46,310 nt of DNA from a phage. Positions 1,930 to 29,747 of this stretch are shown here, in pieces; within the stretch, counting starts at the first letter, position 1, and every line of letters begins with the position of its first letter. A program made the translations under genes and the position numbers. The notes beneath the pieces were generated by a model. That model was not told the DNA's origin and ran no database searches. It was given only the letters and a program-made list of their open reading frames with translations. The stretch lies in NCBI GenBank assembly GCA_012455605.1, contig GCA_012455605.1_3618.2; one strand, 5' to 3'.

Positions 1930-2598
1930 ATGGCTGTAGCTTATCCTACAATACCAATTCCAGATCTTGAAGATGCAGAAACAGTCCTGAGTGATGACTT
2001 CTTGGTTGTCAACCAGACTGATGGGACAAGAAAGGCTAAGATTGATGATGTTGTCAACGATCTCAGCATTACTAAAATAGTCTATTTCACAGAGGGTGGT
2101 TATCTTAAGAGCAAGAAGGACTTTGCTTATGATCCAGAAACTAAGCGCTACTACACGTGGAACGGGGATTATCCTAAAATAATCCTCCCAGACTCCACTG
2201 TAGAGGGTGCTGGGGGTGTGTCTGCAAATGCCTGGTCTGTTTTTGGTGAGCTTGCTGCAACTTCTTCTGGCAGAATAGTTGATTACGGATCTATAGGTGG
2301 TCAGCTTGATATGGATCTTGAAGTTGCAGATACCTTTAAGGTTCGACTAACTTCAAATACCACAATCTCTTTTGAAAATCAAACAGAAGGTCTTGAAGGG
2401 GTGGCGAGAACTATAACCGTATGCATTACTCAGACCTCTGGCGGCAACAAAGTCTATTGGCCGGGTAATGTTAAATGGTCCTACGGAAGAGATCCTATCC
2501 TAACATTTACAGCTGGTGCAACAGACATTTTCAAGTTGGAAACCTACGACAACGGGTTAACTTGGTACGGGGCACTGATTATCGCAGGAGCTATCTAA
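1930..2598 (+). CDS. Tail fibre/adaptor protein with conserved N-terminal anchor domain
   Basis: RBS taaggagaaatc then ATG. First ~100 aa (LEDAETVLSDDFLVVNQTDGTRKAKIDDVV...FTEGGYL...DFAY) are homologous to the N-terminus of the 5233 fibre. Short (222 aa), immediately followed by gene 2600. Confidence 0.55.
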   Translation: MAVAYPTIPIPDLEDAETVLSDDFLVVNQTDGTRKAKIDDVVNDLSITKIVYFTEGGYLKSKKDFAYDPETKRYYTWNGDYPKIILPDSTVEGAGGVSANAWSVFGELAATSSGRIVDYGSIGGQLDMDLEVADTFKVRLTSNTTISFENQTEGLEGVARTITVCITQTSGGNKVYWPGNVKWSYGRDPILTFTAGATDIFKLETYDNGLTWYGALIIAGAI

Positions 2599-2599
2599 G

Positions 2600-5197
2600 A
2601 TGCGTATTCAACATAACATTGATAACGTATTTCAGATGATTGAGGGGCACAGGAAGTGCCTCGATAACAACACAGGTATTACCAACACCCCTACACAAAA
2701 TAAGCTAGTAAACCCTGATGGTCTTATAGCTGCAGGGTGGGCAGGTAATAAGATAAATAATGATTGGGCAATGCATGAGTCCCAAGCTGTGTTGATTCTG
2801 GGATACATTGAAGCATACAGGGCATCGAAAAGCGATTTCTATCTGGATAGGGCAAAAGATGCTTGGGAAGCTTATAATAGTCATCTTCTGGGTGCATATG
2901 CAGTAGAAAGTAAAATGCAAAGATTGTCCCACTACCCTCTATCCACAGATGGGGTTCCATCACATGGTGGGTTTAAAGATGTGGTGGTGTCTTTTACCAA
3001 TGGTAGAGGAAAAATTCCAGCTGGATCTCCGACATGGGGAGAATACCTGGACAAGGCATTCCAAGCGTATAACGGTGTGTTAGGAAGAAACACTGTAGAC
3101 TCTGATGTTTACGGTGGCACAGATGCTAACCCAGATTGGACAACATCCGGATTAAGTTGGTGGGTCGAGTGGTACATAGCATGGGATGGTAACCGCTATT
3201 GGGCTAACGGTAGCATAGCCGACAGTGGTCATACGTCTGTAGAGTTCGGCACAATCCAATTACAAGATAAGGGTGTTACAGGCAGCCACAAGGTGACCTA
3301 TTGTGTAAGATTACCTCAAGAGCAGGGTGGATCGGTGATACCTGCAGGATCCCCTGTAATTGTAAATCCTATAAACGTGGTTGCAGATAATCAGGCCCCA
3401 GAGTTGGACGGGGAAGAAATGTGGTGTGACGCTTGTTATCAACTCTACACCTTGACAGGTGAGGAAAAGTATTACACCGCGTTTGAACAGTCTTACAACA
3501 AGTTGCTTAATTTCAGTGATATAAACGCCTACGACAAACTGTTTAGGAAGACCACGTTGATTAAGGCACCGTTTACAGATGGTACTTGTCTTGTTGCAGG
3601 AACAGTTCCTGTCATGAGCAGGGACAGTGACGGGTATATCAATTTTAGAATGAACGCACGCCAGCCTTGCGAAATAATTCAAAAAGGGACTACATACAAA
3701 ATAGGCAGAGATGCTGAAATTGTTATGAATTTCGGAGGAGAAGGGGTTCTGTTCCAGCCACATTTCATCCTTAATGATGGCAACAATAACAAAAAACAGT
3801 ACAGGATAGGGGTTCCTTTTGGAGGGGCAGAGGTAACAGAAATAGTCGCCAAGGTTACTGATTTCGTAGAGGTAGTTGGTAAAGACGGTAATCCGTATCT
3901 CTTACCTAAAGAGGAAAACATTGTCGTAAGCGGTGGCGCTAGTGTTAGTATGCAGTATGATACCGACATTTACAACCACTCTGACAACTTCACCCGTTGT
4001 AATATAGCAAGAGGTAAAGTAACTTTCAATTTTGGAAGAGAGATTTCTTTAAACTCAGTAACTTATCGATCAGATGATGAGATGGTAAGGGTCAAATTTC
4101 TTGACAAAGACAGGTGGTTATGGTATGCTGATCTATATGCCACTAATGGACAATGGGTAACAGAAACTCTTACTCTAGGAGATTTCAAACTAGATCCGAC
4201 ACAACCTCATCACACCGAAGAAGAGATTAAACCTTTCTTTGCTAATCCTAAGGGGCTCACCTCTGTAGATTTCAGCCTAAGCGACAGACAGATAGGTAAT
4301 GGCTTGTTTGATCTGTACTGCGTAAACACGCTGCCGCAGTTCTATATTGCAGATAGGGATGCTTATCTAATATGGTTTAGCGTATGGATGGCAAGCAAGA
4401 CAGAATCAACCGCTAAGGTTGGTGATTGCTATGTCAGAAACTACAAGCAAGGTGCATACAGGCACACACCGGGTGTGTTCCCTGCCGGAAAGGTGATAGA
4501 TAAGGAAAACTATCTCTTAGAGGAAAAGCCAAATTGGCCCTACCCTGGCATGCAATACCCAGCAGTATACTGCATGGGTGCAGAAAACATAGATCGCCAT
4601 AGATTGTCAAATACAATAGGCTTTCTGTATGACGCTCAAGTCTGGTATAATAATACATTTAAGACAGAGGGTCCAGTTGCCTCGCGTTATGTATGGCAGA
4701 GAGGTAATGAAGGGCTGACTGGTTGGTGGGAGATGGTAGATAACTCTAAGCTCCAGTCAAGATCTTTTGTTGCTGCGTGCCGCACAATCTATGAGCTCAA
4801 GAAACATAAAGAACCTGTTGATGAAAGATTATTCCTGTTCTGCCAGAAATGGGCATGGTTTCTCAACAGATTCCAGTCATCTCATTCAGGAAATCTGCCT
4901 ACAGACTTTAACACCTCTGGGGGATATTCTTATCAAGACAGAGGGGACAGGATGTGGGTGGTAGGTGAATGGCTTGCAGGTTGCTGCTGGCTAGGTCTGT
5001 GCGGGTATTCAGAGACAATACCTCAAATAGATATTGTTGTAGAAGCCTGTATGAAGCTACTGCAAAAGCACCACTTCATCAATGGGGATAATGTTTTAAA
5101 CGGCTGCTGGGCAGTTTCTGATCCGGTGGGCTATCACTCTGGCGAAATCCTTCGCGGTCTGGGCCTCTATGCTCAATACCGTGGATTGTACCTTTAA
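2600..5197 (+). CDS. Tail-associated large protein, possible polysaccharide-degrading enzyme (depolymerase-like)
   Basis: ATG 2 nt after stop of 1930 gene. 865 aa. N-terminal region (GWAGNKINNDWAMHESQAVLILGYIEAYRASKSDFYLDRAKDAWEAY) is reminiscent of alpha/alpha-barrel glycoside hydrolase/epimerase folds. Function is inference only. Confidence 0.4.
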   Translation: MRIQHNIDNVFQMIEGHRKCLDNNTGITNTPTQNKLVNPDGLIAAGWAGNKINNDWAMHESQAVLILGYIEAYRASKSDFYLDRAKDAWEAYNSHLLGAYAVESKMQRLSHYPLSTDGVPSHGGFKDVVVSFTNGRGKIPAGSPTWGEYLDKAFQAYNGVLGRNTVDSDVYGGTDANPDWTTSGLSWWVEWYIAWDGNRYWANGSIADSGHTSVEFGTIQLQDKGVTGSHKVTYCVRLPQEQGGSVIPAGSPVIVNPINVVADNQAPELDGEEMWCDACYQLYTLTGEEKYYTAFEQSYNKLLNFSDINAYDKLFRKTTLIKAPFTDGTCLVAGTVPVMSRDSDGYINFRMNARQPCEIIQKGTTYKIGRDAEIVMNFGGEGVLFQPHFILNDGNNNKKQYRIGVPFGGAEVTEIVAKVTDFVEVVGKDGNPYLLPKEENIVVSGGASVSMQYDTDIYNHSDNFTRCNIARGKVTFNFGREISLNSVTYRSDDEMVRVKFLDKDRWLWYADLYATNGQWVTETLTLGDFKLDPTQPHHTEEEIKPFFANPKGLTSVDFSLSDRQIGNGLFDLYCVNTLPQFYIADRDAYLIWFSVWMASKTESTAKVGDCYVRNYKQGAYRHTPGVFPAGKVIDKENYLLEEKPNWPYPGMQYPAVYCMGAENIDRHRLSNTIGFLYDAQVWYNNTFKTEGPVASRYVWQRGNEGLTGWWEMVDNSKLQSRSFVAACRTIYELKKHKEPVDERLFLFCQKWAWFLNRFQSSHSGNLPTDFNTSGGYSYQDRGDRMWVVGEWLAGCCWLGLCGYSETIPQIDIVVEACMKLLQKHHFINGDNVLNGCWAVSDPVGYHSGEILRGLGLYAQYRGLYL

Positions 5198-5232: not shown

Positions 5233-8200
5233 ATGGCTGATATTAAAGTTGTCAGAATTGAATCTCTTCCTGCCACTACCGCAGTGACAGAGGATGATTA
5301 CCTGGTTGTTCAACAACCAGACCTGACCCGTCGTGTAAAAATTGGCGATGTTGTCCATGTGGATGGGACTGTTTCTCATGTAATCTCCTTTAAGGAAGGT
5401 GGTAAGTTAAACGGCCCAATGGATTTTGCCTACTTCGAAGAGGAAGACCTCTACCTGCGTTGGAAAGGCGAATTTCCACACACTGTTCCTGCACTATCTT
5501 CACCGTACGCTGATGGTGGGATTACTGACGCTGCATGGATGGTATATACTGACCCGTCCTTAAGGGAGGAGTTGGAATCTACCATTGGCGCATCTATGAT
5601 CATGACAGCCGAAGGGCAGTCTGTCCAGGATGTAATGGATGTTACTGTTCAGACAGCTAACGATGCTAAAGCCCTTGCACAGCGTGTAGATTTTGGTACA
5701 GTGCACACTGTAGGTGATGTTATCCACCTTGATAACTTTGTTGGCCCTGCAGTTATTGAAGAGGGAAGAACCACCAACTATCCCTCCGTAGCAGCTGGTG
5801 AAAAATTTCTGAACGGTGTGGTATCTCGTCGTGATACTACAACTGTTGATGGTATTTTCCGTGGAGCTACCTCCGGAGCTATGTATACCATCGCAGTAAC
5901 CAACGGTGTAGCGACAACAAAAAGAATAGCACTTCGTGATGAATTTAAACGCCTGGAGGCAAACAACCCAACAAGAACAGTTATCCGTGCTGGAGATGAT
6001 TTAAACACGGCAGGGTACTTGCAGCTTGATGCAACAGGCCGTTGGGGTATGTGGAACCAACAAACAGCCTCGTGGCAACCTCTTGCTATAGAGCAAGGCG
6101 GTACAGGGGCCAGAGATGCCGCTGGAGTCCGTATCAATATCGGGGCTTTCTATAAGCAACGTGCAGCCCTTGAGCCAAATTTCAATATCAATAACTTGAC
6201 TGGTAATCAGGATGGTGTATACTACCAGCCGATGACTGCTTATGCAACTGAGGCAAATGGTTACCCTGCAGGTTCTGGTGCTGGTCACTTGATTGTTTGG
6301 CAGAACAATGCTAACGGCGGTACAGGTTGTCGTCAGGAATACTACCCATTCTCTAACGTAGATGTTTGGTATTTGAGAACCTATCAGGCCAACACAAACC
6401 AGTGGACTGCATGGCAGCCGATGGTCAGACCTCGTAACGATGATACCTTTAGAGCGCACATCGGTCTTGGTCCTAGAAATACCCCTACCTTCGGGCACAT
6501 TTACCTGTCTCAAAGTTCTGCTGATGTTAAGTCAGCCTCGGGTATTGTTAACGGGGACAAATACAGCGCTGACGGTGTCCTTGAGCATGGATATAGGATC
6601 TATTCTGAGGTAAGAAACGACAATAAGGCTTGGTTGACAATCCACCTGCATAAAGGTGCAAAAGGATCTGAAACTCACAGATATTTAGGTTTCCGCGAAG
6701 ACGGAGTATTAGACTGCCCTAAATACATGCAGGTTGGGGATCTCACTGGTCAGCTGACAAACTGGGGACTTGGAGAGTGGATCCGTAGTTCAGGGGCAGA
6801 AAGAGGCTTCTGGGGGTCCAAGAAAGCCGCCAAGATGGTTGTCTGGGATGGTGGGATGGACGAATCCGGTAACGGCACTCTGGAATGGGGTGTTTATAAC
6901 AACCGGAAGGCCAAGTGGGAACCTTTACCTCAAGCCGCAGGTGGCACTGGAGCTACAACTTTAGCAGATGCTCAGAATCTGTTCAAAGTTCCTATAGCAG
7001 CAGGTGTGAAAGACTTCTTAACACTGCCAAGAACCGCAGGGATGGAAGATGGGAAATACTACCCGATCATCGTTAGAACAGATCCGTACTATGCTCCAGC
7101 AACTGGTACTGATATTACCATAGTTACCAGATCGTCATCTGGAAATGACCCTATGAACTGTGCTACCTTACAGTGTCACTATAGAACTGGTGGTTGGACA
7201 GACAGAGGAGACTCTTTCTACGGGGTAGTAAATTTCTACCAGAATGAAAAAGCACTTCTTGGGATGGTTGCTCCAACAAGGGGTAAACAAGAATATGTTG
7301 CTTTCTATGCAGAGGCGCGTGCTTTCCCTGTCAGCATATACGCAAGTAGAAATGTTGTCGAGGTGTTTACCAGGGAGCAAGATTACCAGGTTGGCTCTGT
7401 AACAGACAATCAGGACGGTGTTAAGTTCGTTGCACCTCTCCAGTCAGCAGATTTAAATCTGGCTGTTCTCGGAGATAACAATACCAACACCAGACCTATT
7501 GTTGACTTCAAAGGTACCTCTGGGTTCTACACTGGCGGCGGCACACAGTGGCACTATATAGGCACTGCTGAACGCTATGCGATAATGAGCAAAATGAACA
7601 TGCCTAAAGTAGAGCTATGGGCTGACGGTTTTGACTATTTGTGCTACAGTGGTCCTAGAAAGGCGCTATTCTCTAACGCAGGATTCCAGTGTGCATCAGA
7701 TGGAACAGAGGATCTAACTAACGGCACGTTTACCTCTAAATGCGGTAATGGTGCTGGCCTTAAAGGTCAAGCAGAGTTCAGGTCTACTCCAGAGGCTGGT
7801 CAAGTTATTGTTCGAGATGTTGTGGGCACAGCTCATAGATTCTACAACTTCAATAAGGATGGTACTTTTTCAGCCCCAGGTGGTTTTGTATGTCATACTG
7901 GTGGAGACTGGAACAACCAGTTCGGGCCTAATAACCCGTCAAAAATAATGGCTGGTAATGTTAACGGTCCACAAGACACCATGGTTGTAGGAGGTTTATC
8001 TGTAGGATTCTCGGGAAACTACGCTTTCCAGATTGCTGGCAGACAAAGTAACTTATACACCAGGTCTATAGAAGGCGGTAATCACCACCCTTGGAATAAG
8101 GCTATGCAGCACAGGGGTCAGGGTCTCGGTACCTCAGACCTTGACACCTATAATGGGTTGTGGGAAGGCATTTACCATCAATCGGCAAATAATGATGCAA

Positions 8201-9045
8201 CATATGATCGTCATTATCCGGTAAATGAAGCTGGAACACTTATTGTGTTGCAGAATAACGCCAATAACGGTAATGGGTGTGTTCAAGAGTATATTACCTA
8301 TCACGGCGATAGATTTATACGTTATGGTAATATGGTGAGACAAACCTTCACTTGGGGCCCGTGGACCCAAACAGGTGGCAATGGTGTTAGCTTCAGATAT
8401 GGAGGAACAACTCCCGAAGGGGAAATACCGACCTCAGAGTTAAAGGTATATATTTCTGGAAGCCATGTTACTAATAACGGTGGCAACATGCCTGCGAATA
8501 GCGCTCATATGCACTATTGGGGCAACGGCAGCACAGGGGATCGCCCAAACGTGTTAGAGTTTAAGGTTCTTGACGAGTCTCAAGCAAATTGGGTATGGCA
8601 TTGCGGTACCTTGCCGGATAAATCAAGATATCTTTCTGTAAACGGTGCTGTGAATTGCACATCTGTCAATCAGAGTTCTGACAGAGACCTGAAAGACAAC
8701 ATATCTGTTATTCCTGATGCGTTAGAAGCTATCCGGAAGATGAAGGGTTATACCTACACTTTAAAAGAGAATGGTATGCCTTATGCAGGTGTTATAGCAC
8801 AAGAAGTGCTTGAAGCACTGCCGGAAGCAGTTAGCTCTTTCGTGCAAAGAAAGGAAATCCCAAACCCTGATCAAGATGGAACTCCTTTGATAACAGAGGA
8901 AAGATTCTACAGCGTGGATTACGCAGCCGTAACAGGCTTGCTTGTCCAGGTTTGCAGAGAACAGGACGATAAAATAACCGCCCTTGAGGAGCAGGTTAAA
9001 AAATTGACAGAGGTTGTTACTGGGTTGCAAGAGAAACTGAAGTAA
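5233..9045 (+). CDS. Long tail fibre protein with C-terminal intramolecular chaperone (peptidase S74-like) domain
   Basis: 1270 aa. N-terminal anchor homologous to gene 1930. Internal fibre-repeat motifs (WxPLxxxxGGTGA...A..N). C-terminus SDRDLKDNISVIPDALEAIRKMKGYTYTLKENG...AQEVLEALPE...coiled coil matches the Ser-Lys autoproteolytic chaperone pattern of endosialidase/T5 L-shaped fibres. Confidence 0.7.
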   Translation: MADIKVVRIESLPATTAVTEDDYLVVQQPDLTRRVKIGDVVHVDGTVSHVISFKEGGKLNGPMDFAYFEEEDLYLRWKGEFPHTVPALSSPYADGGITDAAWMVYTDPSLREELESTIGASMIMTAEGQSVQDVMDVTVQTANDAKALAQRVDFGTVHTVGDVIHLDNFVGPAVIEEGRTTNYPSVAAGEKFLNGVVSRRDTTTVDGIFRGATSGAMYTIAVTNGVATTKRIALRDEFKRLEANNPTRTVIRAGDDLNTAGYLQLDATGRWGMWNQQTASWQPLAIEQGGTGARDAAGVRINIGAFYKQRAALEPNFNINNLTGNQDGVYYQPMTAYATEANGYPAGSGAGHLIVWQNNANGGTGCRQEYYPFSNVDVWYLRTYQANTNQWTAWQPMVRPRNDDTFRAHIGLGPRNTPTFGHIYLSQSSADVKSASGIVNGDKYSADGVLEHGYRIYSEVRNDNKAWLTIHLHKGAKGSETHRYLGFREDGVLDCPKYMQVGDLTGQLTNWGLGEWIRSSGAERGFWGSKKAAKMVVWDGGMDESGNGTLEWGVYNNRKAKWEPLPQAAGGTGATTLADAQNLFKVPIAAGVKDFLTLPRTAGMEDGKYYPIIVRTDPYYAPATGTDITIVTRSSSGNDPMNCATLQCHYRTGGWTDRGDSFYGVVNFYQNEKALLGMVAPTRGKQEYVAFYAEARAFPVSIYASRNVVEVFTREQDYQVGSVTDNQDGVKFVAPLQSADLNLAVLGDNNTNTRPIVDFKGTSGFYTGGGTQWHYIGTAERYAIMSKMNMPKVELWADGFDYLCYSGPRKALFSNAGFQCASDGTEDLTNGTFTSKCGNGAGLKGQAEFRSTPEAGQVIVRDVVGTAHRFYNFNKDGTFSAPGGFVCHTGGDWNNQFGPNNPSKIMAGNVNGPQDTMVVGGLSVGFSGNYAFQIAGRQSNLYTRSIEGGNHHPWNKAMQHRGQGLGTSDLDTYNGLWEGIYHQSANNDATYDRHYPVNEAGTLIVLQNNANNGNGCVQEYITYHGDRFIRYGNMVRQTFTWGPWTQTGGNGVSFRYGGTTPEGEIPTSELKVYISGSHVTNNGGNMPANSAHMHYWGNGSTGDRPNVLEFKVLDESQANWVWHCGTLPDKSRYLSVNGAVNCTSVNQSSDRDLKDNISVIPDALEAIRKMKGYTYTLKENGMPYAGVIAQEVLEALPEAVSSFVQRKEIPNPDQDGTPLITEERFYSVDYAAVTGLLVQVCREQDDKITALEEQVKKLTEVVTGLQEKLK

Positions 9046-9147: not shown

Positions 9148-9738
9148 ATGTTTTTATGGGAAAGGCCTAGATACCTTCCAGATATTAGATTGGAGCTGCT
9201 GGCAGATATTGTTACGTTTAAAAGTCCGTTTACAGGTAAAGCGCAAAAAGTAACCTATGCCACGCCCAACTGGAAAGGCACTTTAACGGTTTCCAATATC
9301 AGCGAGTCACAGTTGTTAGAGCTTAAAAGCTTTGTTGATCAGGTGTATAAAGATGGAAACATCTTTCTTATTAAAACTTACGGTCACTCAGTTACAGCTA
9401 ATGAGCCAATCGCCCTTGGGCCTACTGGTAACGACGATTTTTTGAAGACGGTTGGGTGGGAGCCAAACAGAGACATAGCCAGAGCCGGAGATAAAATATC
9501 TGTCAATGATGAATTGAAAGTGGTAACAGCTCCAGTGCGTAGCGATGGTGTTGGGTCTGCTGTTATAAGCATATCTCCAAGACTTAGAAAACCTATTGCC
9601 GCAGGGGACACTATGAAGATAATAACTCAATCTCCGAAGGGCAGGTTTCATATTAGAGATATTTATAAAATTAAGCAAAAAGTCGATGCTATGCAAAAAG
9701 GTGATAATATAGTTATCAACTTCTTTGAGGATTTCTAA
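9148..9738 (+). CDS. Tail tip/baseplate-associated protein, unassigned
   Basis: ATG with AGGAGG RBS; first gene of a four-gene translationally coupled unit ending in the J-like fibre. No family recognised by eye. Confidence 0.4.
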   Translation: MFLWERPRYLPDIRLELLADIVTFKSPFTGKAQKVTYATPNWKGTLTVSNISESQLLELKSFVDQVYKDGNIFLIKTYGHSVTANEPIALGPTGNDDFLKTVGWEPNRDIARAGDKISVNDELKVVTAPVRSDGVGSAVISISPRLRKPIAAGDTMKIITQSPKGRFHIRDIYKIKQKVDAMQKGDNIVINFFEDF

Positions 9739-9739
9739 G

Positions 9740-10291: not shown

Positions 10292-10716
10292 TGAGCACGC
10301 ATCCTCGTCTAGTGGACTGGCAAGAAAGGTTGTGGAAAGTATTTGACGAAGAGGCAACCATACCTTTTGAATGGGGATTCCACGATTGTTGCACTTTTGC
10401 GGCTAAGTGTGTTGATGCCCAATACGGAACAGATTTTCTTTCTAACTTCGAAGGAACGTATAAAACAGAGTTGGAAAGCAAGAGATGGTGCATGCTCCGT
10501 TTCAAAACCACACACCTGCCTACTATTTTTGATCTCTTTATGACTCGGCTGGATACTCCTAAACAGGTTCAGCGTGGAGATATTGTCATTTTCGAAGGTC
10601 TGAACGGCCTCACCGCTGGTGTGTTCTGGAACAACCAGATTTGGGCGAAAGGTGATAAAGGGGTCTTTATGTTCGACATGAAAGATTCTATCGTTGTTGA
10701 TGTCTGGAGGTATTAA
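10291..10716 (+). CDS. Tail assembly protein, lambda gpK-like NlpC/P60-type cysteine peptidase domain
   Basis: ATG at 10291 (track TTG start at 10279 rejected), RBS GGGAGG. Motifs GFHDCCTF and GDIVIFEG...LTAGVFWNNQIWAKG resemble the C-terminal domain of lambda K. Immediately upstream of the J-like gene with TAATG overlap. Confidence 0.5.
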   Translation: MSTHPRLVDWQERLWKVFDEEATIPFEWGFHDCCTFAAKCVDAQYGTDFLSNFEGTYKTELESKRWCMLRFKTTHLPTIFDLFMTRLDTPKQVQRGDIVIFEGLNGLTAGVFWNNQIWAKGDKGVFMFDMKDSIVVDVWRY

Positions 10717-20899: not shown

Positions 20900-20908
20900 A
20901 CAAAGGTC

Positions 20909-22319: not shown

Positions 22320-24065
22320 ATGGCGCAAGACATGACAAGCTTTGAGCAGGCGGTAGATCAAGTAATTGTTGATTCTGAACGTTTGCACCTGATTGTCAAC
22401 GGTAACGCTGTGGATGAAGTTGTCGTAGAGGATGGGACCACCATCCCTACGGTACGAAAAGCCATGCTTGACACCCTTTATTTTAAAACGCCACCGATCC
22501 CTTGGGCGTATGGTGCATCCACAACAGTTTTTAACCAGCTGTATGAGTTTAAAGGGGATACAGGCCCTCAGTGGTGGTACGCTCCCGCAGCATCAAAATC
22601 TAACCCGGTTAGAATGCCAGCAGATCCTTCACAATCTCCAAACTGGAGATTATACACCGACTCTGCAGTAATGGCAAAATACTACGCAAAACTTAACAGC
22701 CCAAGGTTCGAAGGTGACCCGCGAGTACCTACACCTCCAATGGACGATAAGTCAGAGTCCATAGCAAACACAGAGTTTGTTGTTGACTATGTTGATAGCA
22801 TATTTGAAGCCATGGAGGGGATGAAAGTTACTGTAGGGTCTTTGGTGGTAAAAGGTCTTACAGAACTCGCCAACACCATAGTTGGGGGCACCCTTACCTT
22901 ACATGGACCTGTTAATGGAGCGGATTCTACTGCACGCTTCAGGAACCTAATCCTCACGGCAAATACTTCTACACTTACTTTTGCGTGGAGCGATCCTAAG
23001 CATGCAGACTGGAGAAGTACAGAGCTGCAACCTCATGAAGTGTCCACCCACAGGGTTATAGCTGACACTATAACTTCTGGGAAACCAGTGGCTAATAATA
23101 ACGATGTACATTTTGATGGTCTGGGTAATAACTTTTTTGACTACGTGTACATTCGTGGTAATGCCATGAAGGCAGCAACCGAACCGACATTGCAGGTAGA
23201 TGGGACCACCAGGGTTAAGAACCTTGAGGTGACAGGTACCGTTACAGGGATAACCTACTCTGTCGATGGCACCATGATCTACCCTAGCTATATTGAAAGC
23301 ACGGGCGATGCATTGATAAACGGCGATTTGGAGGTTGGCGGGTCTGTAGTTATCCGAGGTACAGCCTCTATCCAAAATATAGCTCTGAATACTCTAAGAG
23401 TCAATGAGCGTGCAACTTTTGAAGGAGAAGGGCTTACAGCCAATAAAGGCACAATTACTGAGCTGACCACCACCACTTTAACTGCAACAACTGCAAACTC
23501 TGAAAACTGCAACATTACCAGAAACTTGCAGGTAAATGGAGATGTTAGTTTAAACGCCGCAGGGACTGGCACCACCTACCTTCACAATCTTGAAATATCC
23601 GGCACAGTGACCGGATGGCTGCCAGACTTCTCTAATGTCAACTTTGTCTGTAATGGCATTAACTCCAGTGGTAAGATAACCACCTCTCAAGAAATTGAGG
23701 CTGGTAAAACCATCACTGCCCCTACTTTCCACGCAGGGAAGGTAGATTTCGATTTAGAGGAGGTTGACGCGTCCAGTGGGACATGGACACCTAACGGGCA
23801 GGCCAGTATGTATGTTGTCCACGCTAAAGGGGATTTTACAATAGGGCAGTGGCCTGGGACATCAGCGGAAGATAAACCTTATCCATTTACTGCGGTTATC
23901 TATGTAATTCAGGATGCTGTAGGTCACAACGTGACTTTGCACGATAAGTATGCTATCCTGTCGGCAACACCTGTTATTAACAACAAGGCTAACAGTGTTA
24001 CCTTGCTGCAATTAACGTATTGTGGTGTTGGTGATATCGTAGATGTAGTAATTGCACAACGTTAA
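22320..24065 (+). CDS. Tail fibre/tailspike protein
   Basis: 581 aa. RBS identical to that of gene 1930 (taaggagaaatcATG). Gly/Thr/Asn-rich repetitive beta-strand-like sequence (TGTVTGITYSVDG, LTANKGTITELTTTTLTATTANSENCNIT). Confidence 0.55.
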   Translation: MAQDMTSFEQAVDQVIVDSERLHLIVNGNAVDEVVVEDGTTIPTVRKAMLDTLYFKTPPIPWAYGASTTVFNQLYEFKGDTGPQWWYAPAASKSNPVRMPADPSQSPNWRLYTDSAVMAKYYAKLNSPRFEGDPRVPTPPMDDKSESIANTEFVVDYVDSIFEAMEGMKVTVGSLVVKGLTELANTIVGGTLTLHGPVNGADSTARFRNLILTANTSTLTFAWSDPKHADWRSTELQPHEVSTHRVIADTITSGKPVANNNDVHFDGLGNNFFDYVYIRGNAMKAATEPTLQVDGTTRVKNLEVTGTVTGITYSVDGTMIYPSYIESTGDALINGDLEVGGSVVIRGTASIQNIALNTLRVNERATFEGEGLTANKGTITELTTTTLTATTANSENCNITRNLQVNGDVSLNAAGTGTTYLHNLEISGTVTGWLPDFSNVNFVCNGINSSGKITTSQEIEAGKTITAPTFHAGKVDFDLEEVDASSGTWTPNGQASMYVVHAKGDFTIGQWPGTSAEDKPYPFTAVIYVIQDAVGHNVTLHDKYAILSATPVINNKANSVTLLQLTYCGVGDIVDVVIAQR

Positions 24066-24113: not shown

Positions 24114-27100
24114 ATGCTTCCAATCCCTTTGCTAAAACTTGGTCGTCATTTCCTCGATAAGAGGGGTGGAATTAAGGAACTTGCTGTTCTGTCATACCCA
24201 ATAGACAACAGTGATGGTACAAGCAATACAGTATCCTATGTAAATAGCTTAGCTATACTTTTTGATGATGGTCAGCTTAATATTACTGGCTATAATAGGT
24301 TCGGAGAGTGTCGGACTGGAGATCTTGATACAATAAACTATCCTAATGAGGCAGCTTGGAACGTAGACCATGTTTGGAGAGCTGACCGTGCATTTGTAAT
24401 CCGCACATTCGATAATAAATTTTTCTATATTGGTTGCACAGCTGGTCTTATCGGATCGGAGGCAGCAGGTGGAAACGATGTTTGTGTCAGAGAGTGGACA
24501 CCTTTGCCGGAACAGATCGTAACAGGGTTGCATTTGGACACCCATCCTGAGAGACTTGTTGAAGTAATGGGTGGGGTAAACAATACAGTGTGGGTAATTG
24601 CTGCACCAGAGGCTGATGGTATGCTTCACCTGTACGGCTCTGGCAATAATACTTACGGCTCTCTTCATGTTGACAAAAATCAGCATGCAACCCCTGTAAA
24701 GATTGGTGAGACATCGGAAAATCCTGAAACAGGTCCTTGGAAAAACCCAAGCATCAACTGCGAGGTGCATGACAACTCTGTTATTTTCGGTGGTCCTAGA
24801 GGTTTCTGGATTGCTGGATATGACTTTCTGAGAAATAACAGTAGAAACGACCTTGTTTGGCCTCCTGTGCAGATTACTCGTAACGATTTGAGGGGCATTC
24901 CTGCAGATGAGGAGTGGAAAGGGTTTATGTGCGGTCCTAACGGGGCAATAATTGCCACACAGAGGATGCATAGACCCGATGACCAGCAGCTTGTTAACGT
25001 ATTTTATGGTCAAAACATTTGGGGGGATGATACATGGCGGGAACTGAATATCACCTACACCCATGAGGTAATAATGGCTCGTGGGTACGGAACAAGTGGC
25101 ATTTTCTTCAATAATGGCACCAAGCAGTATCGTGGATTCTCTCGCAACTTGTGTAATGATATTGGTGCACAATCTGCAAACAATAGTCCTAGGTCCGATT
25201 TTATCCACTATCAAGCTCTTGCTACAGCTAAATATGTTGAGCAACGCCTGCCAGTTAGCTGGACAGAGAGTGTTTATTTCCAAGGCATCCATAGAGAAGG
25301 TTTCTTAGGGACCTTTACTGTTGTTAATGGTAAACTTTGGTGGTCAGGCATCCCAAGGGGAAGTTTTGCAGGCTCTAACAACCTGTTTGGAGGCAGACTT
25401 AATAGCCAGGGGTTCACAGAGGTTCCTGAGAATTGGTATAAAAATGTCCCAGTAGATAGTTGGGGTGTTGATGATATTTTTGACGTTAACGGTGTTAGCA
25501 GCGTTAGCAATATCTACATTGGTGACACGGTCAAGATGAAATTGAAGCCTCAGCCAGAGGGAGCTACGTTCATTATTGACAAGATTGAACTGGTAAATGC
25601 TGCAGGTACGGTTGTTACAGATGCAAATTACCAATTCTCCACCAACTGGAACCACGGCGGGGCCAACGAAGTTGTTGTTACTCAGTATAACAGGAATGTG
25701 AACAGACGTGGCCTGTACTCTGTAAAAATAACCTATCATGACAAGCATGGCACAGGAAGAACGCACACGACAAGGACCTTGAACTGGAACACCATAGTTC
25801 CTGCGTATCCTTCTGACGGTAAGTGGCATACTGTCGGTAGAAACAAACAGTTCCATGTTAATGACACTGTATACTTCGGGCTGAATGGGACTCAGCCTGC
25901 GGTAGAAGGGGATACATCGTATATGGTCCGACTCCACAGAATGGATGCTGGATCAGTCACTTATGATGTTACCCAAGAGATTTATGATCAGAGACGAAAT
26001 ACCTACAACAACTTAGTGCAGACACAGGCCGTATGGGAGTTCAACCCTAACGGCAGAGGTGGTAAAATGTTGCAGGTTAACGAGCAAAACGGAACGTCGT
26101 TGACTGTCCACGAACACCCAGACCCTTGGCCTGATCCTGGAAAACCTCACCCAGGTGCTCGTACACTGAAAATTGTCAGCCATGATGCAGGATATTTCGG
26201 AATACGCTGGGAAGCCACAGTAAGATATGCCGACGGGACAACAAACAACATAGGGATTACACTTGGGGGCACCAGTGAGGATAACTCGCTGAAAATTGCC
26301 TACACTCCTAGAGGTATTTCTATTGATAATATGGATGTTGTTCGCAACGGTTACGGGGATGTGAACATCAAAGTTACTCTTGGTGAACATCTTGGCGGGG
26401 AAAGGATCATCATGTACGCCTTTGATCACGACCCCCGCACTGACGGAACCTATGCAGACCAAGCGTGGAGCTACCTGATAAGCGCACCTGAGCCAAATAC
26501 CAAAGAATTCTACTACGGTATGAAACGGGATGTGTGCAAGAAAACAGGGACACATGACTGGATTGCAATCTGCGTTAAAGATGAACGTACCGCTTGGGAC
26601 GAGCCTGTTAACAGATGGTTCATAGGAATTCCCACTCGAAGTGATAAATACGTTGAAGAATATATTGTATGCATGGGCGGCACCAACCTCAACATGTGTT
26701 GGAACGAGGATGCAAACAAATACTCTGATTACGATTATATGAGGGATTACTCTTGCAATCAATGGTTTAACCAAACCGGGTATGCTAATCGACAGTCAAG
26801 AGTAAACCCTGCAATCTTTACAGATACGCAGGTTTTCTTGACAAAACAGGCCAACGAGGTTCAGACCTTCAAGAACAAATACGACCCTAACAAGTGGTTT
26901 TATAACTGTTATGGCGCATTTTTCTGGGGGCCAGGGGAACTGCCTAACGGGGGATCTTGCTTCGAGGCTTCAACTTACGCCAGTGATTACATCATGGGGC
27001 AGGTTAAGAAGTATAAGATAATTCCAGGGCCTGAAACTCTTGGTAATGCCGTTGATCCTTATATCATCATGACTGCGCTGAGATCAAACATGGACGGGAC

Positions 27101-29747
27101 ATCTATGTCTATGCAGATCCCAGTAACAAATGGGTACAAACGTGTTGTGATGATTATTAAGTGTGACTTAATAGGTAAACAAGTCCTTGCAGAAAACGGG
27201 ACCTCCACACATCCTTTTGAAATTGCTCTGCACTATCAGTTTGCTGACTCACCTTTTTCAGGAGATAAGAGAATATCTGATACAGATGCGCAGCGTTGTA
27301 AGAAGGTATTGTTGGGTGCAGGTTGGTGGTGGTATGAATTTGATTTAACAGACAAATTCACCGACACGTCAAAAGTTGTAACAGGACTTCGTCTAGACCT
27401 TGGCGAGAACATGCACAAAGCTGTTTGTGATGGCACCTATGGTGACCCTACAGTATATCTGAAGTATGTCTCTTTTGAGCATCCGGAAGATGTTGTTTAC
27501 GGTCCAAAACTGAGATTGTTTGGCAGTTGGATTGCAAAAGACAGGGTAGGCATGGGTAAAAAGGTAAGAGGGTTCTTGGTTGATGCAGGAACAGAAGACA
27601 TGCTGGTTAATGCAGTGTGGCCTGAATTACCTGGGACTCAGTGGGATAACTCAGCCAAGTCTATAAACTGGTTCAACATTCACAGAGCTATGTGGACCAC
27701 TAACTGCTATTTGTGGAGAGAGCTTAACGATCAGGCTTTTGGCTTCAGTAACGGCAGAAGGATGGCGATCATTTGCTGGACAACGCTGCAAAGATGTTAT
27801 GACCATGACTACGAGATTGGGGGCAGGGCATGGAAAAACATCAGGGATAGAATCATAACCAATTTTGCAGACGACAACGGCGGTGGAGCATATAACTTCG
27901 GCACAAGTAGACTTATTCACTTGAATGGGTCATCCGCGTATAAGAAAGAGGGTTACTCCGGATCCATGATCGAGTGGGGTCTGGTGAAAGATGCTCGCGT
28001 GCTGATGGGTCAACAACTTGCTGCTGCAATAGGTCCTAATGCAGTGCAATCTGTTAAACCTGCGTGGTTTGATATCCCATTGTGGTCATCCGGTACACCA
28101 GGAACTGCTGCAATCAACCCTACCACGGGGGATCTGGAAATCTCTTGGGAGGACTTGAAGCAGGTTGGAGGCTGGGATAAAACAGGGTATCAGGTCCAGT
28201 GGTGGAGGGCTGATGGATCTTTAGCCGCTGATGAGTTTGTTAAGGACAATTTCTACACCATGTCCTCTGCAAAAGCACAGCAATTATTTGGTCAGGCCAC
28301 TCCGTCAACGATCACCATGTCTATGTGCTGTAAAGACAACAGGACTGGAGCTTTGGGGCCAAGGGTTGCTAAGGTTTTCTCAGGTATTAAATGGAATCTC
28401 CCTGTTCAAAGTGTTTCATGGAAGCAAATAGGTGATAACAAGCTGCTGGTTACCCCTGCCTGTCAGTTCAACGCAACTCTTAACGTTGATCCTGCTGTTG
28501 CGGCAAACTCAGCTAAAGCTTCTGACTTCTCTGTGTCTAACACTGCTATGGCAGATGTGAGGAAGATTGACACACTGAACGCCAGAATTACCTGTAAAAA
28601 CACTTATGGCACATTCCAAATCATCAACAACTTCACAGATGCTGATTCTAAGGTAGTAAGGACAGCAAGCCAGACTCTGAGTTTAGGGACTCTGGCCTAT
28701 GCGGCCCTGATCACCGAACAGTCGGCAACACTCCAAGGAGGCGGTGCAGGCAAGTCCATTGCAACACCTGTGTGGAAGCCGAATGAGTGGGTTGTGTTTG
28801 ATTTGACTGTGGACTTCTCCAGTGATAATAACTGGACATGGGTAAGGAATTGTTTGTCACAGTTGATGGGCGGTCCAAGCTCCATTAGCGATAGTCACGA
28901 CTCTACTGACCCGAGCGTGTTCCAGGTGGGTAAAACTCACCCAGAGACTGGAGAAACGTTGCCTGACAGGAAGTATGCTTTGGTTTGCATCTCTTACGGG
29001 AAGGCAGATGTCACCTTCTCAGGGACACACACTTATAACGGAACCTACAACTTCTCAAGGAAGTATAGTCTCAAAGCAGGGAACATTGTAGACGAGGTTG
29101 GTGTGCTGTATAATCCAGGTAACGGCATAGGGATTGTGGGTGGTAAACTGCAGATGCAGGAACCTTCTATTACCCCTTCCAACGTATCCGGTATTAGAAA
29201 GACTTGGGAAAGTAGTAATACCAACATTGCAACAGTGGATGCTGCCACAGGGCTGGTAACATTTAAAGCTACTGGGAATGTCACCATAAAGTTTGTAGTT
29301 ACTGATGATGCAGGGCGCAAAACGTCTTCAACATCTTTTACTGTCAAACAGATGGCACCACAGTGGAGAATGTGGATAGGTACAGCAACAAACGGGGCAT
29401 ACCCTAATCCGGCAGGTACTTCTGGTATGAAGACTTTCTCTACAAGCAAACCGATGGAGTACGGCAGCGGTCCTAAGGTAGGGCAGATGGTGTACTTTGG
29501 TGCGTATATTCCTGAAATTATAGGGCTTCCTAGAAGTCAGCTTCAGTTGCTGTTTGGGGCTGGTGTTGACGATCTTGCCACTTTCGGGTATAGCGACAAC
29601 ATCGAGGCTGCAAGGAGTTCAGGATGGGTAGGGTTCAGAATGGAGTCTGGAAAGGAAGGCAGGATTCTAGGGACAGCCTCTATAGGTGTTATGTTCCCTG
29701 GTGACCAGCAGTATCGTCTAGAAGCCTACGCAACCTTTTCTCGTTAA
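24114..29747 (+). CDS. Giant virion/tail-associated protein (1877 aa) with C-terminal bacterial Ig-like (Big_2) domain
   Basis: Longest ORF in the window. Big_2-like segment ITPSNVSGIRKTWESSNTNIATVDAATGLVTFKATGNVTIKFVVTDDAGRKTSSTSFTV near the C-terminus. Last gene of the plus-strand structural block. Confidence 0.5.
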   Translation: MLPIPLLKLGRHFLDKRGGIKELAVLSYPIDNSDGTSNTVSYVNSLAILFDDGQLNITGYNRFGECRTGDLDTINYPNEAAWNVDHVWRADRAFVIRTFDNKFFYIGCTAGLIGSEAAGGNDVCVREWTPLPEQIVTGLHLDTHPERLVEVMGGVNNTVWVIAAPEADGMLHLYGSGNNTYGSLHVDKNQHATPVKIGETSENPETGPWKNPSINCEVHDNSVIFGGPRGFWIAGYDFLRNNSRNDLVWPPVQITRNDLRGIPADEEWKGFMCGPNGAIIATQRMHRPDDQQLVNVFYGQNIWGDDTWRELNITYTHEVIMARGYGTSGIFFNNGTKQYRGFSRNLCNDIGAQSANNSPRSDFIHYQALATAKYVEQRLPVSWTESVYFQGIHREGFLGTFTVVNGKLWWSGIPRGSFAGSNNLFGGRLNSQGFTEVPENWYKNVPVDSWGVDDIFDVNGVSSVSNIYIGDTVKMKLKPQPEGATFIIDKIELVNAAGTVVTDANYQFSTNWNHGGANEVVVTQYNRNVNRRGLYSVKITYHDKHGTGRTHTTRTLNWNTIVPAYPSDGKWHTVGRNKQFHVNDTVYFGLNGTQPAVEGDTSYMVRLHRMDAGSVTYDVTQEIYDQRRNTYNNLVQTQAVWEFNPNGRGGKMLQVNEQNGTSLTVHEHPDPWPDPGKPHPGARTLKIVSHDAGYFGIRWEATVRYADGTTNNIGITLGGTSEDNSLKIAYTPRGISIDNMDVVRNGYGDVNIKVTLGEHLGGERIIMYAFDHDPRTDGTYADQAWSYLISAPEPNTKEFYYGMKRDVCKKTGTHDWIAICVKDERTAWDEPVNRWFIGIPTRSDKYVEEYIVCMGGTNLNMCWNEDANKYSDYDYMRDYSCNQWFNQTGYANRQSRVNPAIFTDTQVFLTKQANEVQTFKNKYDPNKWFYNCYGAFFWGPGELPNGGSCFEASTYASDYIMGQVKKYKIIPGPETLGNAVDPYIIMTALRSNMDGTSMSMQIPVTNGYKRVVMIIKCDLIGKQVLAENGTSTHPFEIALHYQFADSPFSGDKRISDTDAQRCKKVLLGAGWWWYEFDLTDKFTDTSKVVTGLRLDLGENMHKAVCDGTYGDPTVYLKYVSFEHPEDVVYGPKLRLFGSWIAKDRVGMGKKVRGFLVDAGTEDMLVNAVWPELPGTQWDNSAKSINWFNIHRAMWTTNCYLWRELNDQAFGFSNGRRMAIICWTTLQRCYDHDYEIGGRAWKNIRDRIITNFADDNGGGAYNFGTSRLIHLNGSSAYKKEGYSGSMIEWGLVKDARVLMGQQLAAAIGPNAVQSVKPAWFDIPLWSSGTPGTAAINPTTGDLEISWEDLKQVGGWDKTGYQVQWWRADGSLAADEFVKDNFYTMSSAKAQQLFGQATPSTITMSMCCKDNRTGALGPRVAKVFSGIKWNLPVQSVSWKQIGDNKLLVTPACQFNATLNVDPAVAANSAKASDFSVSNTAMADVRKIDTLNARITCKNTYGTFQIINNFTDADSKVVRTASQTLSLGTLAYAALITEQSATLQGGGAGKSIATPVWKPNEWVVFDLTVDFSSDNNWTWVRNCLSQLMGGPSSISDSHDSTDPSVFQVGKTHPETGETLPDRKYALVCISYGKADVTFSGTHTYNGTYNFSRKYSLKAGNIVDEVGVLYNPGNGIGIVGGKLQMQEPSITPSNVSGIRKTWESSNTNIATVDAATGLVTFKATGNVTIKFVVTDDAGRKTSSTSFTVKQMAPQWRMWIGTATNGAYPNPAGTSGMKTFSTSKPMEYGSGPKVGQMVYFGAYIPEIIGLPRSQLQLLFGAGVDDLATFGYSDNIEAARSSGWVGFRMESGKEGRILGTASIGVMFPGDQQYRLEAYATFSR

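Follow-up and report, generated by a model that had tools for sequence, protein, structure and literature searches.

Baseplate and tail-fibre locus of an rV5-like Escherichia coli phage: several receptor-binding structures and a siphovirus-type tail-tip cassette

Introduction

The fibres of rV5-type phages have been described in earlier genomic, genetic and cryo-EM publications, and it is already known that rV5-like phages carry, next to multiple fibres that are co-expressed, tail proteins that cut sugars. Three fibre classes were distinguished in MaxBurger and EmilHeitz by cryo-EM (a Mu-like short fibre, a beta-helix fibre and an S74 fibre). Receptor genetics of the Vequintavirus group point to wecB/nfrB-dependent NGR together with the LPS core, and all tested members need these same receptors on K-12. 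Phage phi92 (Justusliebigvirus), with its ‘Swiss army knife’ apparatus, has three co-expressed fibre sets in cryo-EM, fibre II branching off the base of fibre I (PMC13450770). Related parts are known from the branched tailspikes of CBA120 (TSP1-4) and G7C (gp63.1/gp66), which belong to Kuttervirus myoviruses and podoviruses; from the baseplate of Pectobacterium phage phiTE (PDB 9CUY), whose short tail fibre is fixed to wedge protein 1 and directed downward; from the N4 non-contractile sheath (gp64/gp65), an NGR/NfrA receptor-binding protein; and from the lambda-type tail tip (M-L-K-I-J). The same NGR receptor dependence has been reported for N4 and the Vequintavirus group.

Here we compare these systems with a window of 46,310 nucleotides, the whole stretch of phage DNA that was analyzed (contig GCA_012455605.1_3618.2). 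The three visible fibre types and the receptors come from experiments on close relatives; our own analysis covers orthology, domain content, the pattern of conservation and the fold of gp42. Proteins are named by their rV5 counterparts.

Results and discussion

Phage identity and gene content

Based on identity and synteny, the window is from a Vequintavirus, an rV5-like contractile-tailed myovirus of E. coli. Over bases 1-25000 it shares 98.2% identity with phage naam and 97.2% with rV5; gene order is collinear with rV5 gp46 to gp27. We read the locus as a baseplate and tail-fibre morphogenesis block that is gene-for-gene orthologous to rV5 gp46-gp27 (probability about 0.85). This reading also draws on a one-to-one correspondence with those phi92 tail genes that cryo-EM has assigned, and on sequence matches to solved virion structures of phiTE, Mu, lambda, N4, CBA120 and G7C. 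Across the first 25 kb the tail-fibre loci (gp27-gp46) of rV5, naam, RudolfGeigy, MaxBurger and LL12 are 96.7-98.2% identical to the window, with identical gene order and lengths and the same three variable genes; like it, they have paired short fibres with a Tfa chaperone, a deacetylase fibre (gp34) and a J-like cassette, and they differ from it at the allele level only. For gp41 the window shares its allele with naam and RudolfGeigy (99%) and for gp37 with rV5 (100%); its gp27 matches all of them at 94-97% identity. In the second half of the window, identity is at most 95.4% at full query coverage (95.9% at 98% coverage), and the phage is therefore probably a new isolate at about the species level, judging from sequence.

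All eight genes that the earlier note had named as fibre-like are real ORFs on the + strand, and a Shine-Dalgarno-like AGGAG/GGAGG motif lies upstream of each (8/8). Its figure of at least seven fibre- or spike-like genes is a fair count if tailspike-type enzymes are included as ‘spike-like’.

The baseplate core

The central baseplate spike (514..1191, + strand; rV5 gp45, phi92 gp138 homologue) is not a fibre; it contains the Pfam N-terminal spike domain PF18352 (1.4e-9), is 27% identical to the phi92 spike gene and is annotated in BASEL as ‘baseplate central spike’. The adjacent gene (1204..1920, +; rV5 gp44, phi92 gp139) encodes a sheath initiator/baseplate protein that matches the phrog_120 baseplate wedge subunit (6e-21) and phi92 gp139 (25% identity), which cryo-EM of phi92 identifies as its sheath initiator. 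The wedge proteins gp36 and gp35 (14661..16849, +), a site of fibre docking, carry PF04865 Baseplate_J, match phrog_6 and phrog_4056, and are 32% and 29% identical to phi92 gp145 and gp146, respectively; in phi92, gp145 is the attachment point of fibres I and III (PMC13450770). Hub, spike, sheath initiator and wedge all have homologues in phi92. This baseplate (gp46, gp45, gp44, gp36, gp35) would bear several co-expressed receptor-binding structures.

A putative long lateral fibre arm

The 222-aa adaptor-type fibre protein gp43 (1930..2598, +) consists of a Tail_spike_N anchor (PF18668, 2.1e-10) and a C-terminal half resembling phi92 gp140 (aa 109-222, 42% identity). It belongs to phrog_7760 (tail fiber protein, 8e-120), and its PDB matches are to the N-termini of CBA120 TSP3 and G7C gp63.1. 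The same anchor (1e-9) begins the 1270-aa long lateral fibre gp41 (5233..9045, +; phrog_6578 tail fiber protein), with 38% identity between the two N-termini. The distal third of gp41 (aa 900-1270) is variable or replaced among relatives, the C-terminus is a self-cleaving S74 intramolecular chaperone (PF13884 Peptidase_S74, aa 1149-1200, 1.6e-13), and a strong terminator lies 3' of the gene at 9053-9075. The anchor and chaperone domains described earlier for this region were thus recovered, at E-values well clear of chance, while the ‘fibre repeats’ and ‘beta-helix-like repeats’ were not: the sole tandem repeat in 30 kb lies in gp41 and has a 24-nt unit present 2.1 times, and self-BLAST of gp27 revealed no internal repeats. 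Good tryptic peptides for gp41 were reported from rV5 virions. Since no other gene of the block bears an S74 domain, we infer that gp41 corresponds to cryo-EM class TC12 of MaxBurger.

Between these genes, gp42 (2600..5197, +; 865 aa) had also been listed as fibre-like, a description that does not hold since it has no fibre feature. It is a non-fibrous, tail-associated, enzyme-like protein, homologous to phi92 gp141, which holds the same position in phi92. Its model (alignment of 7 sequences, pLDDT 71), used for the fold only, is a split (alpha/alpha)6 barrel of the glycosidase/epimerase type, into which beta-sandwich domains are inserted.

Several genes probably encode adaptors or enzymes that belong to a common fibre, examples being gp43 and gp42, which correspond to phi92 gp140 and gp141. 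The gp41 fibre would dock via its Tail_spike_N anchor, probably co-assembled with the adaptor gp43 and the glycosidase-fold gp42, and the resulting arm would be equivalent to the one that gp140/gp141 form in phi92. The anchor of gp43 and gp41 is that of the branched CBA120 and G7C tailspikes, whose N-termini match both proteins in the PDB. In contrast to those systems, no T4 gp10-like branching domains were detected in the window, and the catalytic beta-helix spike bodies are absent from the window proteins.

The gp34 tailspike, the short fibres and gp28

A glycan-deacetylase-type tailspike is encoded by gp34 (16849..18921, +), with a Calx-beta domain, an N4-sheath N-domain and a TIM barrel (PF23845, 4e-80; PF23844; PF03160). 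The Calx-beta domain reported in the earlier note is present here at the margin (score 27.0 against a Pfam threshold of 27), beside strong NCTSP_N and TIM-barrel_NCTSP matches (4e-80). The protein is 42% identical to phi92 gp142, and a PDB search matched the N4 sheath subunit gp64 (9lc0/9yf4, 2e-24), with which it has the NCTSP_N and TIM-barrel_NCTSP domains in common; unlike gp64, gp34 is a 690-aa protein with a Calx-beta N-terminus on a myovirus baseplate and forms no sheath around a short tail. It is a candidate for the NGR glycan binder of the phage group, and may mediate binding of NGR, the exopolysaccharide that depends on wecB/nfrB and serves as primary receptor on K-12.

The short-tail-fibre module (18934..22032, +) comprises the short fibre gp33 (18934-19974), the Tfa chaperone gp32 (19989-20573), gp31 (20585-20899) and the gp33 paralogue gp30 (20989-22032; 42.7% identity), all on the + strand. 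The Tfa assignment was correct, PF02413 Caudo_TAP being found in gp32, between both paralogues. The short fibres match the phiTE short tail fibre at the N-terminus (1e-19) and the Mu fibre S at the C-terminus, the module is homologous to phi92 gp147 (fibre III) and gp148, and the short-fibre class TC1 has been seen by cryo-EM (PMC12143355). The Mu-S-like gp33 and gp30, probably folded with gp32, would point down from the wedge; their terminal receptor is probably the LPS outer core, and binding to it would trigger sheath contraction.

The 581-aa gp28 (22320..24065, +; phrog_4549) has an N-terminal baseplate anchor. Residues 8-325 match the phiTE long tail fibre (PDB 9cuy_g, 9e-77), residues 6-112 are 44% identical to the N-terminus of the phi92 colanidase gp150, and residues 486-581 are 48% identical to the phi92 gp151 C-terminus. 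It would form the conserved lateral fibre of the apparatus and, going by domain descriptions, is probably class TC8 of RBPseg. While phiTE thus resembles the window in the N-termini of gp28 and gp33, its distal receptor-binding parts are unrelated, as phiTE is flagellotropic, and it has fewer fibre genes.

Compared with phi92, then, counterparts exist for gp42 (gp141), gp34 (gp142), gp33/gp30 (gp147), the Tfa chaperone and the gp28 N-terminus (the gp150 anchor), while the window lacks the endosialidase (gp143) and the colanidase catalytic domain, and has two short-fibre paralogues where phi92 has one. The phi92 tail locus lacks a gp40-gp37 J-type cassette and a gp27-like giant protein.

A siphovirus-type tail-tip cassette and a giant Ig-domain protein

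Three genes, gp40, gp39 and gp38 (9148..10716, +; true starts at about 9148, 9740 and 10291), encode Dit-like, gpL-position and DUF6950 proteins. Of these, gp40 matches the distal tail protein phrog_1302 (1e-49), gp39 matches the tail protein phrog_2048, and gp38 contains DUF6950 (2.7e-33); a PDB search with them returned no match. They are collinear with PY54 ORF17, ORF18 and ORF20 (37%, 29% and 45% identity). Among the matches listed (40 of 313), all homologues with less than 60% identity are in genomes of 40-83 kb, and most are annotated as siphovirus tail proteins. The next gene, gp37 (10716..14555, +), encodes a 1279-aa J-like (central-fibre-type) protein whose N-terminal part is J/hub-like and which has Ig_J and Ig_J_second domains and a conserved Phage_Tail_Tip domain (1e-38); the coiled-coil middle is variable, and variation is confined to aa 600-1000. 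In the PDB it matches lambda J (8iyk, 1.6e-28) as well as the F2-pyocin fibre; aa 47-673 are 40% identical to PY54 J, and the protein is 58% identical to that of siphovirus CAjan. A strong terminator follows at 14562-14583.

Relative to the lambda-type tail tip, with PY54, 9g and CAjan the nearest examples, gp40, gp39, gp38 and gp37 are homologous and in the same order (29-58% identity), and gp37 has the J-specific Ig domains and the tail-tip domain. The cassette differs in that the phage around it is contractile-tailed and equipped with a separate hub and spike, and in lying away from the position downstream of a tape-measure gene; we identified no gpI-like gene. The presence of such a siphovirus cassette within the baseplate locus of a myovirus is, in our view, more interesting than the number of fibres. 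Its position in the virion was not found in the literature on the group.

The giant 1877-aa Ig-domain protein gp27 (24114..29747, +) belongs to phrog_15684, matches the phrog_11922 tail protein at aa 41-197 and has an Ig-like surface domain and, at aa 1681-1732, a Big_2 domain (1e-8). With Ig_J_second (1e-30) in gp37, this agrees with the Ig-like domains noted earlier. Weak PF25390 RCC1-like and PF16403 matches occur in 12 of the 16 gp27 family members. Homologues have only the N-terminal 76% in common, the C-terminal ~450 aa being swappable. An AF2 model of aa 1-1200 was unusable (pLDDT 46.6). Both gp27 and J-like gp37 with the gp40-gp38 cassette may be further components of the apparatus.

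Several of these proteins, notably gp27, gp42 and the gp40-gp37 cassette, might be non-virion, acting as lysis-released enzymes or persisting as unassembled remnants of a siphovirus module. None of them was located in cryo-EM density (PMC12143355), gp42 has an enzyme fold, the cassette lies between terminators as an inserted module would, and rV5 mass spectrometry gave only weak, low-score, non-tryptic peptides for gp27. We consider this unlikely, since every one of these ORFs is intact, has a good ribosome-binding site and lies in the late structural operon, and they are 97-100% conserved, or allelically exchanged without disruption, across >100 genomes. Moreover, some tryptic peptides for gp37 were obtained from purified rV5 virions, the gp42 orthologue is retained at the same position in phi92, and allelic variation of gp37 and gp27 suggests host-driven selection typical of receptor-binding proteins. 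For gp34, rV5 mass spectrometry yielded only low-score, non-tryptic peptides; gp42, gp43, gp33, gp30 and gp28 are placed in the virion by one sentence of the rV5 paper, which is not mirrored in the Table S5 summary of the same publication.

Valency of the apparatus

From the number of genes, a multivalent or branched apparatus had been proposed. A multivalent, branched apparatus is indeed reported in the literature on the group, but the gene count overstates the valency: in MaxBurger, which is 96.8% identical to the window over this block, cryo-EM found three fibre types against nine annotated fibre proteins (PMC12143355), and valency is thus below the gene count. If each of the seven to nine proteins formed its own fibre or spike with its own receptor, there would be at least seven specificities. 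Nine proteins are indeed annotated as fibres in BASEL genomes, their domain sets are distinct (S74 fibre, J-type, deacetylase, glycosidase fold, Mu-like, Ig-like), and the group lyses a broad range of hosts. Such a one-to-one relationship is nevertheless quite improbable given that three fibre types per wedge are resolved in cryo-EM, in two Vequintavirinae as in phi92, and that six of the nine proteins are at least 97% invariant across phages of different hosts. The small size of gp43 (an anchor plus a gp140-like half) and the non-fibrous nature of gp42 fit subunits of a composite fibre, and the tested members all depend on the same NGR and LPS-core receptors.

Conservation and host range

Only gp41, gp37 and gp27 vary among relatives, every other gene being at least 97% identical; the same three-gene pattern has been published (Maffei et al., S5C Fig). 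The broad host range suggested in the earlier note accords with the broad lysis range reported for the group. Against a valency as high as the gene count, Maffei et al. argued that these phages are effectively monovalent on K-12.

The same note's suggestion of a switchable host range found no counterpart in the DNA. The pair of Mu-S-like paralogues on either side of a single Tfa superficially resembles Mu S/U and S'/U', and the paralogues together with the variable genes could form a switching system based on alternative expression, Mu G/P1 C-like inversion or a diversity-generating retroelement. This is highly improbable: both paralogues and all other fibre genes are on the + strand, no inverted repeats flank the fibre genes (the only inverted pair, 22 nt at 82%, is at chance level and 17 kb apart), and there are no DGR-like direct repeats of the template/variable type. 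No invertase or reverse-transcriptase domain was found among the ORFs scanned, namely all those of the fibre block and, of the ORFs at 29.8-46.3 kb, ten of the larger ones. Both paralogues are also at least 97% invariant across genomes. Host-range variation between strains would arise via allelic exchange in three genes, affecting the distal third of gp41, the middle of gp37 and the mosaic gp27.

Identity and organization of the locus

Bases 1-25000 of the window matched 132 phage records by megablast, 100 of them with at least 80% query coverage; the best matches were naam (98.2% identity), RudolfGeigy (97.8%), rV5 (97.2%) and MaxBurger (96.8%). All well-annotated matches are Vequintavirus, i.e., rV5-like myoviruses. 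For the second half of the window, identity was at most 95.4% at full query coverage and 95.9% at 98% coverage. GenBank also holds 16-18 unannotated ‘Campylobacter phage’ records (MG0656xx; host Campylobacter jejuni) that are 94-98% identical to the window (1-46310); mislabelling, or contamination with coliphages, probably explains them.

The plus-strand ORFs are collinear with the maps annotated for RudolfGeigy, naam and rV5, and synteny with rV5 gp46-gp27 holds gene for gene, with per-gene amino-acid identities of 94-100%. These collinear maps therefore allow each start to be assigned an rV5 gene name. The block, all on the plus strand, opens with the genes for the hub gp46 (start 38, truncated at the window edge) and the spike gp45 (start 514), followed by gp44 (1204), gp43 (1930), gp42 (2600) and gp41 (5233). 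Next are gp40, gp39 and gp38 (9148, 9740 and 10291), gp37 (10716), gp36 (14661), gp35 (16163), gp34 (16849) and gp33 (18934); gp32 (19989), gp31 (20585), gp30 (20989), gp29 (22044), gp28 (22320) and gp27 (24114) complete it. An earlier note on this DNA had placed at least seven fibre- or spike-like genes at 1930-29747, and every start coordinate that it gave belongs to a real plus-strand ORF.

A Shine-Dalgarno-like motif lies 5' of each block gene, and the GC skew is positive to ~30 kb and flips beyond, in agreement with the change of transcription direction after gp27. Downstream of the fibre block are a minus-strand gene for a DUF2201 metallopeptidase/VWA-like protein (34102-35583) and three plus-strand ORFs, encoding a rIIA-like HATPase protein (41335-43317), a protein annotated in relatives as rIIB (43328-44533) and a PIF1/RecD-like helicase (44533-45903). 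With these ORFs (34102-35583 and 41335-45903) the early region begins.

Domain content of the fibre-like proteins

Most of the domains proposed earlier (anchor, chaperone, Tfa, Ig-like and Calx-beta) were recovered, and PHROGs assigns nearly all of the fibre-like genes to tail or tail-fibre families. The N-terminal TSP1/gp66-type anchor known from CBA120 and G7C (PF18668, Tail_spike_N) opens both gp43 (2e-10) and gp41 (1e-9), with PDB matches, and the two N-termini share 38% identity. Pfam and PHROG searches, which work at the level of sequence, found none of the T4 gp10-like branching (XD) domains of CBA120/G7C in the block proteins. At its C-terminal end, gp41 carries a Peptidase_S74 intramolecular chaperone (1.6e-13).

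Two proteins of the block appear to be of enzyme type. In its modelled (alpha/alpha)6 fold, gp42 is an enzyme-like tail protein. The Calx-beta match in gp34 is at threshold (27.0 bits; cut-off, 27), and the same protein has strong matches to the N4 non-contractile sheath N-domain and TIM barrel (PF23845, 4e-80) and to N4 gp64 in the PDB (2e-24). It is thus like the sheath receptor-binding protein (gp64) of N4, with putative NGR binding, and is classed here as a deacetylase-type tailspike with predicted enzymatic activity.

The short-fibre proteins gp33 and gp30 are paralogues (42.7% identity) whose N-termini match the phiTE short fibre and whose C-termini match Mu fibre S in the PDB; gp32, encoded between them, has a Caudo_TAP (Tfa) chaperone domain. 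The 3' ends of the two paralogous genes (19912-19973 and 21970-22031) share 84% DNA identity over 62 nt. This is far above the overall protein identity of 43% and suggests either that the C-terminal tip is conserved or that gene conversion has acted locally. Residues 8-325 of gp28 match the phiTE long tail fibre (9e-77). The ‘fibre repeats’ and ‘beta-helix-like repeats’ of the earlier note were not confirmed by tandem-repeat and self-similarity scans of the sequence: a single tandem repeat, 2.1 copies of a 24-nt unit within gp41, occurs across 30 kb, and self-BLAST found no internal repeats in gp27.

Correspondence with the phi92 tail

To map the block onto a tail with cryo-EM assignments, we used tblastn against the tail locus of phi92 (a Justusliebigvirus). 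The hub gp46, the spike gp45 and gp44 correspond to phi92 gp137 (hub), gp138 (spike) and gp139 (sheath initiator), respectively. The C-terminal half of gp43 corresponds to gp140, gp42 to gp141 (35% over its full length), gp34 to gp142 (42%), gp36 and gp35 to the wedge proteins gp145 and gp146, both gp33 and gp30 to gp147, gp32 to gp148, and gp29 to gp144. The N-terminus of gp28 (aa 6-112) matches that of phi92 gp150, while its C-terminus matches that of gp151.

In the phi92 virion, gp147 is assigned by cryo-EM to the downward-pointing fibre III on the wedge protein gp145; there are three fibre sets per wedge, and fibre II branches at the base of fibre I (PMC13450770). This arrangement of three sets is published for phi92 and for MaxBurger (96.8% identity). 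As to the capsule depolymerase tailspikes of phi92, tblastn found no homologue of the endosialidase gp143 in the window, and of the colanidase gp150 only the N-terminal anchor (aa 6-112), with the catalytic domain absent. The S74 chaperone type, at the C-terminus of gp41, is the only feature of gp143 that is shared. Counterparts of gp27 and of gp40-gp37 are absent from the phi92 tail locus by the same search.

Variation among relatives

Across seven Vequintavirus loci, every block gene has at least 97% protein identity except gp41, gp37 and gp27, which range from 74 to 99%, with partial coverage in some relatives. A published comparison (Maffei 2021, S5C Fig) likewise places allelic variation only in the three largest fibre genes, the remaining locus being conserved. 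In gp41 the variation falls within residues 900-1270, and in LL12 the distal part is longer and wholly different, with a separate small ORF after it. In gp37 it falls in the middle region (residues 600-1000), which Pfam suggests is coiled-coil; the protein is 1199, 1279 or 1381 aa long in different phages, and its N-terminal part and C-terminal Phage_Tail_Tip domain are conserved between them. Such central variation is the reverse of the usual variable C-terminal receptor-binding tip. Variation in gp27 is moderate and mosaic. The record of phage V18 (NC_041937) has its gp41, gp37, gp27 and tape-measure orthologues broken into several short CDSs, which look like frameshift or assembly errors rather than real biology.

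A siphovirus-type tail-tip cassette in a myovirus baseplate locus

Positions 9148-14555 hold a complete siphovirus-type tail-tip cassette inside the myovirus baseplate locus: gp40 (Dit-like), gp39 (gpL-position), gp38 (DUF6950) and gp37 (J-like). The Pfam domains of gp37 are Ig_J, Ig_J_second (1e-30) and Phage_Tail_Tip (1e-38), and its PDB matches are lambda J (8iyk, 1.6e-28) and the F2-pyocin fibre. The four genes are collinear homologues of the ones located after the tape-measure gene of siphovirus PY54, with identities of 37% (gp40 to the distal tail protein ORF17), 29% (gp39 to ORF18), 45% (gp38 to ORF20) and 40% (gp37 to the J protein ORF22). Two tblastn searches (best 40 of 313 and best 50 of 645 records) gave further homologues, including CAjan (58%), 9g (53%) and Vibrio phages; among the matches listed, all those outside Vequintavirus are in genomes of 40-94 kb, mostly siphoviruses. 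On either side of the cassette stands one of the block's two strongest intrinsic terminators (9053-9075 and 14562-14583). Concatenated gp40, gp39 and gp38 gave no match to PDB sequences, and NCBIfam has no models for these three proteins.

The cassette thus shares with the lambda-type tail tip its J-specific Ig domains, its tail-tip domain and collinear genes at the Dit, L and K positions. The lambda-type complex, however, is the distal tip of a non-contractile tail and is encoded directly after the tape-measure gene, and neither holds here: the relatives of the window phage are myoviruses with a sheath gene, and their annotated maps put the tape-measure gene upstream of the genes for the hub and spike, where it does not adjoin the cassette. 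The phage also encodes a hub and spike of its own in addition to the cassette. In the literature consulted we found no placement of the cassette in the virion, nor an explanation of how a baseplate already equipped with hub and spike would carry a J-type protein, and the cassette is not among the three fibre types found by cryo-EM of MaxBurger and EmilHeitz (PMC12143355). We tentatively propose, at a probability of roughly 0.3, that gp40-gp39-gp38-gp37 form a mini siphovirus-type tail-tip sub-complex carried laterally on the contractile-tail baseplate. It would consist of a Dit-like ring, an adaptor and a J-type trimer.

gp27, a very large protein

The product of gp27 is rich in cysteine and tryptophan and seems to be a globular protein of several domains, not a fibre. 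A Big_2 domain lies at residues 1681-1732, and of 16 family members 12 have weak RCC1-like and bacterial-surface-Ig matches; what homologues have in common is confined to the N-terminal 76%. The family profile had no significant match among PDB sequences, and an AlphaFold2 model of residues 1-1200 (16-sequence alignment) had a pLDDT of 46.6 and was unusable.

Published evidence on fibres and virion proteins

The rV5 genome paper of 2013 (PMC3606486) singled out gp30, gp33, gp37, gp41 and gp43 as fibre-like and recorded that the short fibres are two paralogues and that gp41 has a K1F-type chaperone. In the annotation of relatives in the BASEL genomes, nine fibres are named (gp42, gp41, gp40, gp37, gp34, gp33, gp30, gp28 and gp27). 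Maffei et al. 2021 described three lateral-fibre sets as the hallmark of the subfamily, citing the comparison with a nanoscale ‘Swiss army knife’, together with a broad lysis host range and dependence on wecB and the LPS outer core. Sellner et al. attributed the wecB dependence instead to the NGR glycan, a receptor common to this group and N4 and linked to gp34 in the literature; a 2026 preprint, reasoning from homology, names the gp34/gp142-type protein as the NGR binder.

The RBPseg study of 2025 (PMC12143355), with cryo-EM on MaxBurger and EmilHeitz, distinguished a Mu-like short fibre (class TC1), a beta-helix fibre whose N-terminus is a helical bundle (TC8) and a fibre that ends in S74 (TC12). 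From domain content, we infer that TC1 corresponds to gp33/gp30 and TC12 to gp41, and that TC8 is probably gp28.

Virion mass spectrometry published for rV5 bears on how many of these proteins are structural. The available summary of Table S5 (PMC3606486) gives 19 virion proteins; those from the block are gp41 (good tryptic peptides, 8.1% coverage), gp37 (few tryptic peptides, 4.2% coverage) and, by low-score non-tryptic peptides only, gp34 and gp27. In that summary, presence in the virion is well supported for gp41, modestly for gp37 and weakly for gp34 and gp27, and the other fibre proteins are unlisted. The main text of the paper reports mass-spectrometric detection of gp30, 32, 33, 36, 42, 43, 45 and 49, whereas the table, as summarized, does not.

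Adsorption and host range

The proposal of a multivalent or branched receptor-binding apparatus is largely right as to multivalency, which is published for near-identical phages, as is the overall picture; the gene count overstates the valency. ‘Switchable’ host range has no basis in the sequence. An invertible segment or a DGR-type switch was considered and rejected: all fibre genes are on one strand, with no flanking inverted or DGR-like repeats. No inverted or template/variable repeats relevant to such a switch were found in 1500-30200, and no invertase or reverse-transcriptase domain appeared in a scan that covered the fibre block in full and, downstream of it, ten of the larger ORFs.

Published work has baseplate wedge proteins carrying several co-expressed receptor-binding structures, gp34-type proteins implicated in NGR binding, and the LPS outer core as the terminal receptor for the group. 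In the window phage, gp43 and gp42, as counterparts of phi92 gp140/gp141, would make up the proximal arm of a composite fibre, and gp41 would dock via the common anchor and shed its S74 chaperone after trimerisation. Strain-specific recognition may be supplied by gp41, gp37 and gp27. The short fibres gp33 and gp30, folded with gp32, would trigger contraction on binding to the LPS core.

As a multivalent adsorption device of phages, the rV5-like block with its many fibres is a textbook case, relevant to host-range engineering. Descriptions of it exist from genomics (2013, 2021), from genetics (the NGR and LPS-core receptors) and from cryo-EM (phi92, and also MaxBurger and EmilHeitz); the window represents one further near-identical isolate. 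Our additions are modest: the sorting of the genes into true fibres, enzyme-type tail proteins (gp42 and gp34) and, apart from both, gp27; the explicit mapping of the block to the structures of phi92, phiTE and N4; and the singling out of the J-type cassette and gp27 as putative parts of the apparatus. If the lateral tail-tip sub-complex is real, an entire non-contractile tail tip would have been re-used as a side fibre, its reach set by the variable coiled-coil of gp37.
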